IMG/VR virus record: IMGVR_UViG_2778261122_000006
Location: 1-6,285 of that record
Source of the DNA: a virus
Taxonomy: Duplodnaviria > Heunggongvirae > Uroviricota > Caudoviricetes
DNA length: 6,285 bases
Direction: 5' to 3' (one strand)
In this document: in pieces, positions 1-6,285 of the stretch
Numbering within the stretch: position 1 is the stretch's first letter
Layout: the number at the start of each line of letters is the position of its first letter
The notes under the pieces: generated by a model
The model's database searches: none
Seen by the model: the letters and a program-made list of their open reading frames with translations, nothing else
Told to the model about the DNA's origin: nothing
Position numbers and translations under genes: made by a program

Positions 1-369
1 ATGTCAAACATCAAAAAATACATCATTGATTACGACTGGAAAGCATCAATAGAAATTGAAATCGACCATGACGTAATGACAGAGGAAAAACTTCACCAGA
101 TTAATAATTTCTGGTCAGACTCTGAATACCGACTCAATAAACACGGCTCTGTATTAAATGCTGTATTAATCATGCTGGCGCAACATGCTCTGCTTATAGC
201 AATTTCAAGCGACTTAAATGCATATGGTGTTGTGTGTGAGTTCGACTGGAATGATGGAAATGGTCAGGAAGGATGGCCTCCAATGGATGGTAGTGAAGGA
301 ATAAGAATTACCGATATCGATACATCAGGAATATTTGATTCAGATGATATGACTATCAAGGCCGCCTGA
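1..369 (+). CDS. ea10: Ea10-like early-left operon protein (122 aa)
   Basis: ORF-track ORF, ATG 1-3, stop TGA 367-369. Protein MSNIKKYIIDYDWK... matches my recollection of lambda Ea10 (122 aa) and lies directly upstream of cIII as in lambda. Confidence 0.8.
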   Translation: MSNIKKYIIDYDWKASIEIEIDHDVMTEEKLHQINNFWSDSEYRLNKHGSVLNAVLIMLAQHALLIAISSDLNAYGVVCEFDWNDGNGQEGWPPMDGSEGIRITDIDTSGIFDSDDMTIKAA

Positions 370-441
370 GCGCGGCGTTACCGCATACCAATTACGCTTC
401 ACTCGAGGCGTTTTTCGTTATGTATAAATAAGGAGCACACC

Positions 442-606
442 ATGCAATATGCCATTGCAGGGTGGCCTGTTGCTGGCTGCCCTTCCGAATCTTTACTTGA
501 ACGAATCACCCGTAAATTACGTGACGGATGGAAACGCCTTATCGACATACTTAATCAGCCAGGAGTCCCAAAAAATGGATCAAACAATTATGGCTATCCA
601 GACTAA
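442..606 (+). CDS. cIII: CIII, lysogeny-promoting inhibitor of FtsH (HflB) protease (54 aa)
   Basis: Not in the ORF track (below length cutoff). ATG 442-444 preceded by AAGGAG at 430-435. My translation: [54 protein letters not shown], stop TAA 604-606; recognisable as lambda CIII. Confidence 0.9.
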   Translation: MQYAIAGWPVAGCPSESLLERITRKLRDGWKRLIDILNQPGVPKNGSNNYGYPD

Positions 607-718
607 ATTCACTATCGCCACTTTTATTGGCGATGAAAAGATGTTTCGTGAGGCCGTCGACGCTTATAAAAAATGGATATTAATACTGAAACTGAGATCA
701 AGCAAAAGCATTCACTAA
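575..718 (+). CDS. kil: Kil, host cell-division inhibitor (47 aa)
   Basis: ATG 575-577 preceded by AGGAG at 561-565. Product [47 protein letters not shown] is the C-terminal 47 aa of ORF-track ORF 449..718, whose upstream extension overlaps cIII and is not believed. Overlaps the cIII 3' end in another frame, as in lambda. Confidence 0.88.
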
Positions 719-793
719 CCCCCTTTCCTGTTTTCCTAATCAGCCTGGCATTTCGCGGGCGATATTTTCACAGCCATTTTCAGGAGTTCAGCC

Positions 794-1090
794 ATGAACG
801 CTTATTACATTCAGGATCGTCTTGAGGCTCAGAGCTGGGCGCGTCACTACCAGCAGATCGCCCGTGAAGAGAAAGAGGCAGAACTGGCAGACGACATGGA
901 AAAAGGCCTGCCCCAGCACCTGTTTGAATCGCTATGCATCGATCATTTGCAACGCCACGGGGCCAGCAAAAAAGCCATTACCCGTGCGTTTGATGACGAT
1001 GTTGAGTTTCAGGAGCGCATGGCAGAACACATCCGGTACATGGTTGAAACTATTGCCCGCCACCAGGTTGATATTGATTCAGAGGTATAA
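794..1090 (+). CDS. gam: Gam (GamS form), RecBCD nuclease inhibitor (98 aa)
   Basis: ORF-track [24 protein letters not shown]..., ATG 794 preceded by CAGGAG at 781-786. Recognised as lambda Gam short form. The upstream GamL extension is in a different frame here (see findings). Confidence 0.93.
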
Positions 1091-1095
1091 AACGG

Positions 1096-1881
1096 ATGAG
1101 TACAGCACTCGCAACGCTGGCAGGGAAGCTGGCTGAACGTGTCGGCATGGATTCTGTCGACCCACAGGAACTGATCACCACTCTTCGCCAGACGGCATTT
1201 AAAGGTGATGCCAGCGATGCGCAGTTCATCGCATTGTTGATCGTCGCCAACCAGTACGGCCTTAATCCGTGGACGAAAGAAATTTACGCCTTCCCTGATA
1301 AGCAGAACGGCATCGTTCCGGTGGTGGGCGTTGATGGCTGGTCCCGCATCATCAATGAAAACCAGCAGTTTGATGGTATGGACTTTGAGCAGGACAATGA
1401 ATCCTGCACATGCCGGATTTACCGCAAGGACCGCAATCATCCGATCTGCGTTACCGAGTGGATGGATGAATGCCGCCGCGAACCATTCAAAACCCGCGAA
1501 GGCAGAGAAATCACGGGGCCGTGGCAGTCGCATCCCAAACGGATGTTACGGCATAAAGCCATGATTCAGTGTGCCCGTCTGGCCTTCGGATTTGCTGGTA
1601 TCTATGACAAGGATGAAGCCGAGCGCATTGTCGAAAATACCGCATACACCGCAGAACGTCAGCCGGAACGCGACATCACTCCGGTTAACGATGAAACCAT
1701 GCAGGAGATTAACACTCTGCTGATTGCCCTGGACAAAACATGGGATGACGACTTATTGCCGCTCTGTTCCCAGATATTTCGCCGCGACATTCGCGCATCG
1801 TCAGAACTGACACAGGCCGAAGCAGTGAAAGCTCTTGGATTCCTGAAACAGAAAGCCACTGAGCAGAAGGTGGCAGCATGA
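1096..1881 (+). CDS. bet: Bet (Red-beta) single-strand annealing recombinase (261 aa)
   Basis: ORF-track [41 protein letters not shown]..., 261 aa; recognised as lambda Red-beta. Stop overlaps the exo start (ATGA). Confidence 0.97.
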
Positions 1882-2558
1882 CACCGGACATTATCCTGCA
1901 GCGTACCGGGATCGACGTGAGAGCTGTCGAACAGGGGGATGATGCATGGCACAAATTACGGCTCGGCGTCATCACCGCTTCAGAAGTTCACAACGTGATA
2001 GCAAAGCCCCGCTCAGGAAAGAAGTGGCCTGACATGAAAATGTCCTACTTCCACACCCTGCTGGCTGAGGTTTGCACCGGTGTGGCCCCGGAAGTTAATG
2101 CTAAGGCGCTGGCATGGGGAAAACAGTACGAGAACGACGCCAGAACCCTGTTTGAATTCACTTCCGGCGTGAATGTTACTGAATCCCCGATCATCTATCG
2201 CGACGAAAGTATGCGCACCGCCTGCTCTCCCGATGGTTTATGCAGTGACGGCAATGGCCTTGAGCTGAAATGCCCGTTTACCTCCCGGGATTTCATGAAG
2301 TTCCGGCTCGGTGGTTTCGAGGCCATAAAGTCGGCTTACATGGCCCAGGTGCAGTACAGCATGTGGGTGACACGAAAAGATGCCTGGTACTTTGCCAACT
2401 ATGACCCGCGTATGAAGCGTGAAGGACTGCATTATGTCGTGGTTGAGCGGGATGAAAAGTACATGGCGAGTTTTGACGAGATGGTGCCGGAGTTCATCGA
2501 AAAAATGGACGAGGCACTGGCTGAAATTGGTTTTGTATTTGGGGAGCAATGGCGATGA
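1878..2558 (+). CDS. exo: Exo (Red-alpha) 5'-3' dsDNA exonuclease (226 aa)
   Basis: ORF-track [50 protein letters not shown]..., 226 aa; recognised as lambda exonuclease. Start overlaps the bet stop by 4 nt. Confidence 0.97.
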
Positions 2559-2737
2559 AGCATCCTCACGATAATATCCGGGTAGGCGCGATCACTTTCG
2601 TCTACTCCGTTACAAAGCGAGGCTGGGTATTTCCCGGCCTTTCTGTTATCCGAAATCCCCTGAAAGCACAGCGGCTGGCTGAGGAGATAAATAATAAACG
2701 GGGAGCTGTATGCACAAAGCATCTCCCGTTGAGTTAA
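2555..2737 (+). CDS. Small early-left hypothetical protein, lambda orf60a-like (60 aa)
   Basis: ORF-track ORF 2549..2737 ([21 protein letters not shown]...). The third codon, ATG 2555-2557, has GGGGAG (2541-2546) at about 8-nt spacing and gives exactly 60 aa, so I place the start at 2555. Overlaps the exo stop. Confidence 0.7.
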
Positions 2738-2901
2738 GAACGAGTATCGAGATGGCACATAGCCTCGCTCAAATTGGAGTCAGGTTTGTGCCAATTCCAG
2801 TAGAAACAGACGAAGAATTTCATACGTTAGCCGCATCCCTTTCACAAAAGCTGGAAATGATGGTGGCGAAAGCAGAAGCAGATGAGAGAGACCAGGTATG
2901 A
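2710..2901 (+). CDS. Small early-left hypothetical protein, lambda orf63-like (63 aa)
   Basis: ORF-track [66 protein letters not shown], 63 aa, GGGAG at 2701-2705. Overlaps the 3' end of the preceding ORF by 28 nt in another frame. Confidence 0.7.
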   Translation: MHKASPVELRTSIEMAHSLAQIGVRFVPIPVETDEEFHTLAASLSQKLEMMVAKAEADERDQV

Positions 2902-2977
2902 CAACCACTGAATGCATTTTTCTGGCAGCGGGCTTCATATTCTGTGTGCTTATGCTTGCCGACATGGGACTTGTTCA

Positions 2978-3193
2978 ATGACACCTCAGCAAGAAAACGC
3001 CCTTCGCAGTATTGCCCGTCAGGCTAATTCTGAAATCAAAAAAGCCAGACAGCAGTTTCCGGATAAAAACGTCGATGACATTTGCCGTAGCGTACTGAAG
3101 AAGCACCGCGAAACGGTAACGCTGATGGGATTCACACCGACTCACTTAAGTCTGGCAATTGGCATGTTAAACGGCGTTTTTAAGGAACGGTGA
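2978..3193 (+). CDS. Hypothetical protein (71 aa)
   Basis: ORF-track ORF 2912..3193. The internal ATG at 2978 (MTPQQENALRSIARQANSEIKKARQQFPDK...) is my preferred start because the N-terminal 22 codons from 2912 have no RBS and read as non-protein-like (MHFSGSGLHILCAYACRHGTCS). Function unknown; start uncertain. Confidence 0.55.
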   Translation: MTPQQENALRSIARQANSEIKKARQQFPDKNVDDICRSVLKKHRETVTLMGFTPTHLSLAIGMLNGVFKER

Positions 3194-3213
3194 ACATGAA
3201 AAGCAAAATCATC

Positions 3214-3236
3214 AGGGAGCTACAGGCTCCTTTTTT
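3214..3236 (+). terminator. Candidate intrinsic terminator after the 71-aa ORF
   Basis: GGAGC (3216-3220), loop TACAG, GCTCC (3226-3230), then TTTTTT (3231-3236). Short GC stem plus T-run, 23 nt after the stop at 3193. Confidence 0.45.
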
Positions 3237-3291
3237 ATTATTCGCATTCACCCTCAAGCGTATTAACCAACAATTCAGGGATTAATGAAAG

Positions 3292-3513
3292 ATGGCAGAC
3301 ATCATTGATTCAGCATCAGAAATTGAAGAATTACAGCGCAACACAGCAATAAAAATGCGCCGCCTGAACCACCAGGCTGTATCTACCACTCATTGTTGTG
3401 AGTGTGGCGATCCGATAGATGAACGAAGACGACTGGCCGTTCAGGGTTGTCGGACTTGTGCCAGTTGCCAGCAAGATCTGGAGCTTATCAGTAAACAGAG
3501 AGGTTCGAAGTGA
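3292..3513 (+). CDS. TraR/DksA-family C4 zinc-finger protein (73 aa), likely RNA-polymerase secondary-channel regulator
   Basis: ORF-track ORF MADIIDSASEIEELQRNTAIKMRRLNHQAVSTTHCCECGDPIDERRRLAVQGCRTCASCQQDLELISKQRGSK. Cys35-x2-Cys38-x17-Cys56-x2-Cys59 matches the DksA/TraR C4 spacing; size is typical of phage and plasmid TraR-like proteins. Confidence 0.75.
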   Translation: MADIIDSASEIEELQRNTAIKMRRLNHQAVSTTHCCECGDPIDERRRLAVQGCRTCASCQQDLELISKQRGSK

Positions 3514-3665
3514 GCGAAATTAACTAGAAGCCAAAGATAAAATCATCGCTGAGCAGGAGAAAATCGCTAACGGAGAAAAGACAGTAAGTCAGTATATGAA
3601 AACCGCATGATATCATCAGATAAAAATCGGTCGTAAAGCGAAATATTAATACCAGAATAAACGAG

Positions 3666-3689
3666 TCGAGGTAAATTATATTACCTCGA
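3666..3689 (-). terminator. Perfect 9-bp inverted repeat between convergent genes; candidate terminator for the reverse-strand membrane gene
   Basis: TCGAGGTAA (3666-3674), loop ATTATA, TTACCTCGA (3681-3689). Lies 35 nt beyond the reverse-strand stop at 3724-3726; the reverse-strand RNA downstream is moderately U-rich (CUCGUUUAUUCUGG). No T-run on the + strand. Confidence 0.4.
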
Positions 3690-3723
3690 TAAATTAACTA
3701 AAACTTGCCCGCTATATACTATC

Positions 3724-4302
3724 TCATTCAGTATCATCACGCGCGGTCTGTGCATATGTCACTACCGCACCTAATGTATTAATTTTCTTTTCAACATAGA
3801 TAATATTATCGTACTCATAATTGCCATACGGATAGCAAATGCGAATATTCTCATGTAGATCGGGGTCATCCACCTCAGCTCCAGAACAACTTTTTGAACT
3901 ACCGGAAGTATACCGATACGGTGCAACATAAGACGATGTCTCTCCAGGCAAAAAATAAGTTAGTGTTGTAAGGGGTATAATCAGAAAAAATCCAGAAAAT
4001 ATGCATATCCCTGCATAAACCTTAAGGTATGCTGACAGACTCTTCCAGCCGCTTTGTTTTACTATCCCCTTCTTAACCCAAAACAGAGATAACAGAAAAG
4101 CTATTCCCATGCTAAACAGAATGTAATAGTGGGATATACTCTGATTAAGAAACGTGACCCTGTAGATATCTGCCCGCCACCAGAAGAAAAGGAAAATAAA
4201 GATCAGCCCTGAAACTGTCATGCAAATCAAATAAGGATACGAATCTTTTTTCATGTTTAGCGCCCATAAAATTTTTCCTGCCCGGACAAATTTACCATCC
4301 AT
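3724..4302 (-). CDS. AT-rich accessory (moron) integral membrane protein, three predicted TM helices plus acidic C-terminal domain; function unknown
   Basis: ORF-track reverse ORF 3724..4347, whose first codon is GTG. ATG candidates are at 4302 (MDGKFVRAGK...), 4254 (MKKDSYPY...) and 4221; none has a strong SD, so the start is uncertain. Hydrophobic segments LICMTVSGLIFIFLFFWW, YYILFSMGIAFLLSLFWV and VYAGICIFSGFFLIIPLTTLTYFL, with Lys-rich loops. GC is about one-third by eye, versus over 50 percent in flanking genes. Confidence 0.7.
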   Translation of the reverse strand: MDGKFVRAGKILWALNMKKDSYPYLICMTVSGLIFIFLFFWWRADIYRVTFLNQSISHYYILFSMGIAFLLSLFWVKKGIVKQSGWKSLSAYLKVYAGICIFSGFFLIIPLTTLTYFLPGETSSYVAPYRYTSGSSKSCSGAEVDDPDLHENIRICYPYGNYEYDNIIYVEKKINTLGAVVTYAQTARDDTE

Positions 4303-4528
4303 TTTTTGCGCAGAAAATAGCTCATTACTTACTGCACAATAATACACAAAATTGCGTAAATTTTTTGCATGGATTTTAGCTCTTTCAGCCGACGTTTAAG
4401 GGGTAAAGAGCATTTCCTAAAAGCAACTGACCAACCCAACAGAATGGGCTACCGCTTACGTTGAGAGCAAAAAAGTGTATAGCAGCAATGAACAGCATCC
4501 TCGCACTGACGGGGATTTCTTTTATCTG

Positions 4529-4553
4529 AGCTCGCTACGGCGAGTTTTGTTTT
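4529..4553 (+). terminator. Candidate intrinsic terminator or attenuator immediately upstream of the 114-aa gene
   Basis: CTCGC (4531-4535), loop TACG, GCGAG (4540-4544), then TTTTGTTTTA (4545-4554). The T-run is on the + strand only and runs into the GGAGA RBS of the ORF starting at 4567. Confidence 0.4.
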
Positions 4554-4566
4554 ATGGAGACAAGAA

Positions 4567-4911
4567 ATGTCAGATTTGGCTATGAAGGTTTTGAAATGGC
4601 AATCAACTGGCGATGTCGGCATCAGTAGCGCAACTCTTGCCTCAATCGCATGTGGCCTGAAAAAGAATATCTATGGTCATCACTTCGGCGCTCCCCATGA
4701 CGCAGCAGACTTTCGGCGATGCGTTGCACTTGTTGAGCAGATTCCAGAAATCAGAGATTCATTCGACAAGGTTGCAAAGCGCGTTCCGGCATTCAAAGGA
4801 ATCCTCAACGAATGGGATTCACTCGTTGCTCTGTTGAAGTCTGAAATGAAGACGTACGGGAACAAAGCACCAGAGACTTACAGAAGAATCAGCGAGCTAC
4901 GCAAGGACTAA
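4567..4911 (+). CDS. Hypothetical protein (114 aa), accessory gene upstream of xis
   Basis: ORF-track ORF MSDLAMKVLKWQSTGDVGISSATLASIACGLKKNIYGHHFGAPHDAADFRRC..., GGAGA (4556-4560) 6 nt before ATG 4567, stop TAA 4909-4911. No TM segments and no family I can name. Occupies the position taken by ea8.5 in lambda but is not that protein by length. Confidence 0.75.
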   Translation: MSDLAMKVLKWQSTGDVGISSATLASIACGLKKNIYGHHFGAPHDAADFRRCVALVEQIPEIRDSFDKVAKRVPAFKGILNEWDSLVALLKSEMKTYGNKAPETYRRISELRKD

Positions 4912-4967
4912 CCCGCCTCACACTCGATGAGGCCTGTTCATTTCTCAAGATATCCAGACCTACCATC

Positions 4968-4991
4968 GCCGCATCAATGCGGCTTTTTCTT
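4968..4991 (+). terminator. Intrinsic terminator upstream of xis
   Basis: Perfect 6-bp stem GCCGCA (4968-4973), loop TCAA, TGCGGC (4978-4983), then TTTTTCTT (4984-4991). Textbook hairpin plus T-run. Confidence 0.6.
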
Positions 4992-5003
4992 GCGTGTAAT
5001 TGC
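4990..5003 (+). promoter_or_regulatory. CII-binding site TTGC-N6-TTGC of a pI-type (int) promoter
   Basis: TTGC (4990-4993), GTGTAA, TTGC (5000-5003): the direct-repeat motif recognised by lambda CII, positioned over the xis start region as at lambda pI. The -10 and transcription start could not be confidently assigned by eye. Confidence 0.65.
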
Positions 5004-5015
5004 GGAGACTTTGCG

Positions 5016-5234
5016 ATGTACTTGACACTTCAGGAGTGGAACGCACGCCAGCGACGCCCAAGAAGCCTTGAAACAGTTCGTCGATGGGTACGCGAGTGCA
5101 GGATATTCCCTCCTCCGGTTAAGGATGGAAGAGAGTATCTGTTCCACGAATCAGCGGTAAAGGTTGACTTAAATCGACCAGTAACAGGTAGCCTTTTGAA
5201 GAGGATCAGAAATGGGAAGAAGGCGAAGTCATGA
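5016..5234 (+). CDS. xis: Excisionase Xis (72 aa)
   Basis: MYLTLQEWNARQRRPRSLETVRRWVRECRIFPPPVKDGREYLFHESAVKVDLNRPVTGSLLKRIRNGKKAKS is recognisable as lambda-type Xis. GGAG (5004-5007) precedes ATG 5016. The ORF-track start at 4977 lies inside the upstream terminator hairpin and is rejected. The 3' end overlaps the int start by 23 nt. Confidence 0.93.
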   Translation: MYLTLQEWNARQRRPRSLETVRRWVRECRIFPPPVKDGREYLFHESAVKVDLNRPVTGSLLKRIRNGKKAKS

Positions 5235-6285
5235 GCGCCGGGATTTACCCCCTAACCTTTATATAAGAAACAATGGATATTACTGCTACAGGGACCCAAG
5301 GACGGGTAAAGAGTTCGGATTAGGCAGAGACAGAAGGATAGCAGTTTCAGAGGCTATTCAGGCCAATATTGAGTTGCTATCTGAGAACAGGCGTGAGTCA
5401 CTGATAGACAGGATTAAAGGCGCTGACGCAATCACTCTTCATGTGTGGCTTGACCGATATGAAACAATTCTCAGCGAGAGGGGCATCAGACCGAAAACTC
5501 TACTCGACTACGCCAGCAAAATCAGGGCAATCCGAAGAAAATTGCCGGACAAACCGCTCACTGACATATCAACGAAAGAGGTGGCTGCAATGCTAAACAC
5601 CTACGTAGCAGAAGGTAAAGCGGCTTCCGCAAAATTAATCAGGTCAACCCTTGTTGACGTTTTTCGTGAGGCAATAGCCGAGGGGCATGTGGCAACGAAT
5701 CCGGTAACAGCAACCCGCACAGCAAAATCAGAAGTAAGGCGTTCAAGACTGACAGCTAATGAATATGTCGCGATTTACCATGCAGCCGAACCGCTCCCAA
5801 TCTGGCTGAGGCTGGCAATGGATTTGGCTGTCGTTACAGGGCAGAGAGTAGGCGATTTATGCAGAATGAAATGGTCAGACATAAACGACAACCATCTTCA
5901 CATTGAGCAGGGTAAAACAGGGGCTAAGCTCGCCATTCCGCTGATGCTAACGATTGACGCGCTCAATATCTCATTGGCTGATACACTACAGAAATGCAGG
6001 GAGGCCAGCGGCAGTGAAACTATAATCGCATCAAAGCATCACGATCCGCTTTCCCCGAAAACAGTATCGAAGTATTTTACAAAGGCGAGAAATGCATCTG
6101 GACTCTCATTTGATGGAGACCCGCCAACATTCCATGAACTGCGTAGCCTGTCAGCGAGGCTATACCGAAACCAGATTGGCGATAAGTTTGCTCAACGTCT
6201 TCTCGGGCATAAATCAGATTCAATGGCGGCGCGGTATAGGGACAGCCGTGGACGGGAATGGGACAAAATTGAAATCGACAAATGA
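5212..6285 (+). CDS. int: Lambda-family tyrosine integrase Int (357 aa)
   Basis: ORF-track ORF MGRRRSHERRDLPPNLYIRNNGYYCYRDPRTGKEFGLGRDRR... with the lambda Int arm-binding N-terminus. Catalytic-motif contexts are present: GQRVGDLC (Arg), HELRSLSARLY (His/Arg), LLGHKSDSMAARYRD (His and the Tyr nucleophile). Stop is the last codon of the window. Confidence 0.97.
   Translation: MGRRRSHERRDLPPNLYIRNNGYYCYRDPRTGKEFGLGRDRRIAVSEAIQANIELLSENRRESLIDRIKGADAITLHVWLDRYETILSERGIRPKTLLDYASKIRAIRRKLPDKPLTDISTKEVAAMLNTYVAEGKAASAKLIRSTLVDVFREAIAEGHVATNPVTATRTAKSEVRRSRLTANEYVAIYHAAEPLPIWLRLAMDLAVVTGQRVGDLCRMKWSDINDNHLHIEQGKTGAKLAIPLMLTIDALNISLADTLQKCREASGSETIIASKHHDPLSPKTVSKYFTKARNASGLSFDGDPPTFHELRSLSARLYRNQIGDKFAQRLLGHKSDSMAARYRDSRGREWDKIEIDK

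Follow-up and report, generated by a model that had tools for sequence, protein, structure and literature searches.

Background

The leftward early (pL) operon of lambda carries, between exo and xis, a series of small genes that includes orf55, ea8.5, ea22, orf61, orf63, orf60a and orf73. In lambda, genes located at the end of this series are read only from antiterminated pL transcripts, antitermination being mediated by N in lambda and 434 and by put RNA in HK022. Phages 434 and HK022 have in the last pL-operon slot before xis a gene for a 114-amino-acid (aa) protein, named ORF114 in 434 (GenBank M60848, AAA67902; CPT_434_33 in OL657226) and gp32 in HK022 (HK022_32). This gene has been in GenBank since the deposit of the 434 int-xis sequence. 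Here we describe the ORF114 gene found in positions 1 to 6,285 of the IMG/VR virus record IMGVR_UViG_2778261122_000006, a stretch of 6,285 nucleotides hereafter called the window, which corresponds to the leftward early arm of a lambdoid phage or prophage. An earlier reading of the window, made from its sequence alone, had proposed that ORF114 and a divergent membrane-protein gene may form a two-gene module, or that ORF114 may equally be an independent accessory gene of the pL operon. Our results support the second proposal: ORF114 is the last gene before xis, is inherited independently, is bracketed by terminator-like hairpins and has no promoter of its own.

ORF114 occupies the same general exo-xis slot and the same operon as the lambda genes listed above, and shares with them the early N-dependent expression logic, the non-essentiality, the small size and the mosaic inheritance, but it has no sequence similarity to any of them. 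Lambda itself has neither ORF114 nor the membrane-protein gene. The sequence-only reading had placed ORF114 in the slot of ea8.5. This comparison was mistaken, as the lambda gene directly upstream of xis is orf55 (lambdap35) and ea8.5 is located one gene further out (PMC8614690), and a tblastn search with ORF114 against lambda 27.5-32.5 kb detected no homology to ea8.5 (best E 0.53). The folds also differ, since Ea8.5 is homeodomain/zinc-finger-like and Orf55 is a small alpha/beta protein (PMC8614690), while the model of ORF114 has seven helices and no structural relative.

ORF114 is a real gene of a catalogued orphan family

The open reading frame (ORF) is as first described, with a good ribosome-binding site (RBS) and no transmembrane segments (coordinates in Table 1). 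The highest 19-residue Kyte-Doolittle mean is 1.02 and no segment of that size exceeds 1.6, compared with 21 segments above this value in the membrane protein next door. The predicted product has 12.7 kDa and an isoelectric point of 9.2. Among 60 distinct alleles, the median ratio of nonsynonymous to synonymous substitution rates (dN/dS) is 0.078. The AlphaFold2 model has a predicted local distance difference test score (pLDDT) of 95 and a predicted template modelling score (pTM) of 0.88. The low dN/dS, the presence of homologs across bacterial phyla and the confident model show that ORF114 is a genuine gene on which purifying selection is strong, and an Rfam scan of the region excluded an explanation by structured RNA.

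The protein was considered impossible to assign to a family in the sequence-only reading. This holds for families that carry a function, but not for the catalogues. Residues 1-114 match positions 1-113 of the 116 positions of the phrog_1229 profile (E 1.8e-51), a full-length match to a family that also has the fragment families phrog_8038 and phrog_15291. Megablast and tblastn identified the gene as ORF114 of 434 and gp32 of HK022, with amino acid identities of 95.6% and 96.5%, respectively. These two genes have the same length and the same RBS cassette as the window gene and occupy the same last slot before xis, although in 434 and HK022 a 55-59-aa ORF55, the equivalent of lambda orf55, lies directly upstream, which is absent from the window. 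Phages EC.P3 and E212 encode copies that are 100% identical at the amino acid level. ORF114 and its family are therefore already known as database entries, identical proteins being present in GenBank. However, phrog_1229 has no functional annotation, so that membership gives a name and no explanation, and all names retrieved for relatives were "hypothetical protein". Literature searches with ORF114, phrog_1229 and the accessions, and among anti-defence screens, returned nothing on ORF114.

The family is large. An exhaustive HMMER search recovered 2,837 clusters (50% identity) at E <= 1e-3, with relatives in phages of Vibrio, Aeromonas, Haemophilus (the Mu-like SuMu), Providencia, Arthrobacter and Clavibacter, and also in Agrobacterium. 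The protein had no match when scanned against Pfam, NCBIfam and PADLOC (in PADLOC-DB, no family at E <= 1), and a member-by-member Pfam scan of 79 diverse relatives found scattered chance matches only. Comparison of the model with solved structures revealed no relative; solved anti-defence proteins and nucleotide sponges showed no fold similarity to it.

ORF114 is inherited independently of its neighbours

The distribution of the two divergent genes was compared in three collections. Among phage records, ORF114 is present in 275 and the membrane gene in 6 (434, 2B8 and mEp332), and only 434 has both. In phages 2B8 and mEp332 the membrane gene occurs and ORF114 is missing, and the reverse holds for HK022, mEp043, mEp213, mEp234 and many Shiga toxin (Stx) phages. 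In 5,426 complete Escherichia coli genomes searched at a coverage of at least 80%, ORF114 was found in 915 and the membrane gene in 910, the two being adjacent in at most 115. Finally, in 80 IMG/VR prophage loci carrying ORF114 at an identity of at least 97%, the membrane gene is present in 8 and ORF55 in 28. ORF114 is thus inherited independently of the membrane gene and is not its partner. Independent inheritance was the very outcome that the sequence-only reading had named as contrary to its two-gene module.

The same independence was observed for every other neighbour. In the 49 of the 80 IMG/VR loci that were resolved by the ORF caller, the genes upstream belong to at least 17 families and the excisionases downstream to at least three unrelated types, which shows that ORF114 assorts independently of all of them. 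A search of the genome collection with an alignment of closer relatives yielded just 5 loci. In unrelated phages the homolog is always located among small early or accessory genes. In SuMu it lies between gam and mor, in Vibrio phage D70 it belongs to an array of small genes that includes a Lar-like gene, in Aeromonas phage ST4 it is beside a Ser/Thr phosphatase gene with methyltransferase genes nearby, and in an Arthrobacter phage it adjoins an HNH endonuclease gene and a helix-turn-helix (HTH) gene. In one metagenomic prophage it is the first gene divergent from a cI-like repressor gene, and on another metagenomic contig it is found among genes for single-stranded DNA-binding protein and homing endonucleases. 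A search for conserved neighbours in distant phages and metagenomic contigs yielded no recurrent partner. Near one distant homolog (locus L099) there is a DksA/TraR-type gene.

ORF114 is absent from lambda, Stx phages carry truncated remnants of it and many chimeric fragments exist; for these reasons it is shown to be a non-essential accessory cassette of a single gene. Some Stx phage annotations suggest a fusion of ORF114 with a DNA methyltransferase. This candidate was rejected, since the sequence is a truncated 67-aa remnant followed by a separate methylase gene. In phi315 (L005, 2501-2668) and phiSTEC801-Stx1a (L006, 2501-2704) the remnant corresponds to the N-terminus of ORF114 (phrog_8038), with ORF55 before it and an adenine methylase gene after it that replaces the rest of ORF114. 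It is a mosaic scar, and some annotations merge it into the methylase coding sequence (CDS). Fusions to Kil, Ea22, ERF and a dATP/dGTP pyrophosphohydrolase were likewise rejected, being near-identical E. coli chimeras that represent recombination scars.

Domain fusions gave no clue to function. Of 131 distant representatives, 91 stand alone, and the extensions carried by the others (approximately 30%) are heterogeneous. The single Pfam-annotated fusion, a metagenomic protein of 558 aa (P0245), has an ORF114-like domain at the C-terminus of a CCA-adding/poly(A) polymerase with an HD domain. If real, it would point to a role connected with tRNA. However, we give it little weight, since the junction resembles the start of a separate gene and two neighbouring genes may simply have been read through.

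A conserved site and a proposed mode of action

An alignment of 129 sequences with a median identity of 38% revealed twelve positions, each conserved in at least 95% of them: W11, G18, S20, S21, P43, D45, D48, R51, C52, L55, P60 and W83. The signature can be written as W-x3-G-x2-G-x-S-S ... P-x-D-P-x-D-F-x-R-C-x2-L-x4-P-E ... W-D-x-L. In the model, S20-S21 are at the N-terminus of helix 2, and D45, D48, R51 and C52 lie at the start of helix 3.

Two independent lineages have two ORF114-like domains in tandem, one represented by P0146 and the other by the Agrobacterium type (P0275-P0280; Agrobacterium rubi locus L098, 6001-6750). The C-terminal copy is canonical in both. The N-terminal copies keep W11, P43, D48, L55, P60-E61 and W83 and replace S20 and S21 in both lineages, together with C52 in the Agrobacterium type or D45 and R51 in P0146. 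Because these copies have replaced S20, S21, C52, D45 and R51, the alignment indicates that the fold can do without such residues, which most likely constitute a functional site. The existence of tandem forms suggests, in addition, that the single-domain proteins act in pairs, as dimers. A model of P0280 has two ORF114-like helical domains (pLDDT 77, pTM 0.74) and is suggestive only.

In our preferred explanation, which we hold to be probable, ORF114 is an independent and non-essential single-gene accessory cassette, the last gene of the pL operon before xis-int. Its identity, its independence and its accessory status are shown; the timing of its expression and the way it acts are more tentative matters. 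The product would act in the cytoplasm without a partner, probably in dimeric form, and the small site formed by S20-S21 together with D45, D48, R51 and C52 would bind or chemically modify a target. This target may be one that widely different hosts share, for example a small molecule of the nucleotide type, a nucleic acid or a host protein conserved in all of them. The outcome would be host takeover or counter-defence, rather than a structural, recombination or membrane-associated function. Taken as a whole, this mechanism is possible, but we are inclined to doubt that all its parts are correct. A mechanism by DNA mimicry, as in Ocr or ArdA, was considered and excluded because the protein is basic.

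Several points weigh against the preferred explanation. No homology detected by Pfam, NCBIfam, PADLOC or structure comparison assigns any activity to ORF114. No anti-defence evidence was found, the PADLOC scan covering defence systems and not anti-defence. The grouping of S20, S21, D45, D48, R51 and C52 into one three-dimensional site is putative, and since S20/S21, D45-P46 and P60-E61 are located at helix N-termini, their conservation could be partly due to helix capping. The case for dimers leans on the tandem relatives and on a model from a shallow alignment, the one of P0280. The dependence on N or put antitermination is deduced from consensus hairpins and from the 434 annotation. In addition, binding of nucleic acid as a regulator is a live alternative.

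Alternative explanations

The main rival follows from this last point, namely that ORF114 is an HTH-like regulator which binds DNA or RNA and adjusts early transcription or the choice between lysis and lysogeny, a role reported for other genes of the exo-xis region. The segment G-I-S-S-x-T-L and the basic charge would fit such a protein, as would the recurrent TetR matches, which were insignificant. However, neither an HTH profile match nor a significant fold similarity to HTH domains of the TetR, Xre or AlpA types was found, and the invariant Asp, Arg and Cys residues lie outside the G-I-S-S-x-T-L segment. We therefore regard this role as unlikely, though it deserves to be kept in mind.

A role as an accessory of site-specific recombination, helping Xis/Int directionality, is much less probable still. 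It would explain why ORF114 is always directly upstream of xis in E. coli prophages, and an excisionase gene does directly follow ORF114 in the E. coli prophage loci analysed, in the same order as in 434 and HK022. However, many phages that carry homologs have no xis or int, or have the homolog far from these genes (SuMu, D70, ST4 and the metagenomic contigs), which makes a helper of recombination unlikely. Furthermore, lambda and 2B8 integrate and excise without ORF114, and the presence of several unrelated Xis families nearby points to an operon position and not to a specific partnership.

The co-regulated two-gene module, composed of effector and regulator or of toxin and immunity gene, has next to no probability left and is refuted by the distribution data given above. 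In its favour, the two genes are divergent in the window across a gap of approximately 220 bp, and their adjacency, with or without ORF55 in between, is shared by 434 and some 115 genomes of E. coli. On the other hand, the occurrence of one gene is independent of the other in phage records, E. coli genomes and IMG/VR loci, 434 has ORF55 and two terminators between them, the gap contains no shared promoter-like element, and ORF114 homologs of unrelated phages never have such a neighbour. Base composition differs as well, with 36-39% GC in the membrane gene versus 44-49% in ORF114.

That ORF114 is a spurious or decaying, non-functional sequence amid mosaic joints, as its many truncated and chimeric fragments in databases could suggest, is effectively refuted by the dN/dS value, the full-length copies in 915 E. 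coli genomes, the good RBS, the confident model and a family of 2,837 clusters with a sharp conserved motif, and its probability is negligible.

Mosaic structure and the joint at ORF114

Positions 1100-4569 of the window are 98% identical to 434. From approximately 4550 to 6285, a segment that comprises ORF114, xis and int, the identity is 96.8% to HK022 and just 80.5% to 434. Judged by these identities, there is a mosaic junction at the start of ORF114, where a 434-like left part is joined to an HK022-like ORF114-xis-int segment.

ORF55 (lambdap35, 55-59 aa) is present in 434, HK022 and lambda. In 434 and HK022, ORF55 and ORF114 are each preceded by a cassette composed of a GC-rich hairpin, a T-run, the motif TTTTAT(T)GGAGA and the ATG. 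In the window, the hairpin found ahead of ORF55 in those two phages sits directly against the start of ORF114. Because the hairpin of ORF55 is joined straight to ORF114, we read the alignment to mean that ORF55 is cleanly deleted in the window by a crossover inside the repeated cassette. The hairpin-RBS cassettes look like joints at which accessory genes of the exo-xis region are swapped or deleted, and the window is a clear example of this in lambdoid phages. In phage 434 (L001, 5873-6571) an NleC-like type III effector zinc metalloprotease is annotated just past attP, in a region beyond the window; this is unexpected cargo for a classical laboratory coliphage.

Transcription signals and neighbouring genes

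Four terminator-like hairpins were found around ORF114, two ahead of its RBS and two between its stop codon and the xis-int module (Table 1). A scan of both strands of positions 4348-4566 detected no sigma-70-like promoter. Since lambda genes in such a position need antiterminated pL transcription, ORF114 would by analogy be a delayed-early product after infection or induction, silent in the lysogen.

Table 1. Features identified in the window, with the positions of the corresponding cassettes in phages 434 and HK022
Feature	Position	Strand	Evidence or remarks
Gene order up to exo: ea10-like ORF, cIII, kil, gam, bet, exo	bet 1096-1881; exo 1878-2558		Followed by accessory genes
Gene order after exo: orf60a (DUF1317), orf63 (DUF1382), phrog_303 ORF, orf73-type gene, membrane ORF, ORF114, xis, int			
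Lambda_thermo, cIII thermoregulator RNA	429-487	+	Rfam, 88.5 bits; overlaps start of cIII ORF (442-606)
TraR/DksA-type zinc-finger protein, 73 aa, orf73 type	3292-3513	+	PF01258, phrog_54
Terminator-like hairpin of the membrane-protein gene	3689-3666	-	
Membrane-protein gene	3724..4347	-	ORF list; independently inherited low-GC insert
CII-type site, TTGY-N6-TTGY	4336-4349	-	Just upstream of probable membrane-gene start; CII site annotated in 434
Terminator-like hairpin and T-run, tL4	4497..4516	+	Terminator scan, coordinate mapping; tL4 as annotated in 434 (M60848)
Second terminator-like hairpin and T-run, directly ahead of RBS	4528..4547	+	Terminator scan, sequence comparison; precedes ORF55 in 434 and HK022
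RBS GGAGA, within repeated TTTTAT(T)GGAGA cassette	4556..4560	+	Direct sequence reading; GGAG at 4556-4559, 7 nt to ATG; cassette ahead of ORF55 and ORF114 in 434 and HK022
ORF114 coding sequence (114 aa and stop)	4567..4911	+	ORF list; ATG 4567, TAA 4909-4911; orthologous to 434 ORF114 and HK022 gp32; phrog_1229 member
Terminator-like hairpin directly downstream of ORF114	4915..4933	+	Terminator scan
Terminator t'I	4968..4983	+	Terminator scan, 434 annotations
CII-type site TTGCGTGTAATTGC of pI promoter, start of xis-int module	4990-5003	+	CII-motif scan, 434 annotations
Hairpin-RBS cassette, window	4528-4569		
Hairpin-RBS cassettes, 434 (L001)	3430-3480, 3626-3676		
Hairpin-RBS cassettes, HK022 (L004)	2280-2330, 2486-2536		

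The membrane-protein gene is divergent from ORF114, as the sequence-only reading had stated, but the intergenic region of 220 bp given there needs revision. It measures 219 bp only if the GTG at 4347 is the start codon. Both tblastn and the annotation of 434 favour a more downstream start codon, so that the gap is probably of approximately 265-310 bp. The 434 record splits this gene into two CDSs, and phrog_1416, a family with unannotated function, matches just the C-terminal 88 aa of the protein. With its low GC content and its own terminator-like hairpin, the gene looks like a separately acquired insert, that is, a moron, and it may be one involved in lysogenic conversion or exclusion. The CII-type site located just upstream of its probable start may drive it separately from ORF114, during the establishment of lysogeny, although the two matches to the CII motif in the window are no more than expected by chance in shuffled sequences. 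Further to the left, the window carries the cIII thermoregulator RNA and an orf73-type gene, whose lambda homolog has been reported to bind RNA polymerase (PMC9239242).

Significance and comparison with known systems

As a finding, ORF114 is ordinary: the gene was already annotated, the idea that it pairs with the membrane gene has failed, and a phage specialist would not be surprised. What is left of value is a large orphan family, spread over phages of Proteobacteria and Actinobacteria, for which the model is confident, no structural relative was found and the invariant motif is unusually sharp. ORF114 also lends itself to screens for the function of early accessory genes of phages, as it resides in the model phages 434 and HK022, where clean deletions are easy.

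In a bolder version of our explanation, which we consider rather improbable, ORF114 would be the prototype of a structurally new and very widespread family of early phage proteins, with an invariant Ser-Ser/Asp/Asp/Arg-Cys site for the binding or chemical modification of a universal molecule, small or large, such as a second messenger of immune signalling, a nucleotide cofactor or tRNA. If true, this would be a previously unrecognised class of counter-defence or host-takeover proteins, carried by approximately 17% of E. coli genomes.

The closest parallel in the way of working is offered by the nucleotide sponges Acb2, Tad1 and Tad2. These are soluble, oligomeric proteins of about 100 aa, each encoded by a cassette of one gene in an early or accessory region. 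They occur in phages of unrelated hosts, have few invariant pocket residues, bind a universal ligand and thereby neutralise host immunity. The likeness of ORF114 to them would be one of mode of action only, as no solved structure is related to it in fold or in sequence. Its invariant Cys distinguishes ORF114 further, such a residue being unusual among sponges of this kind.
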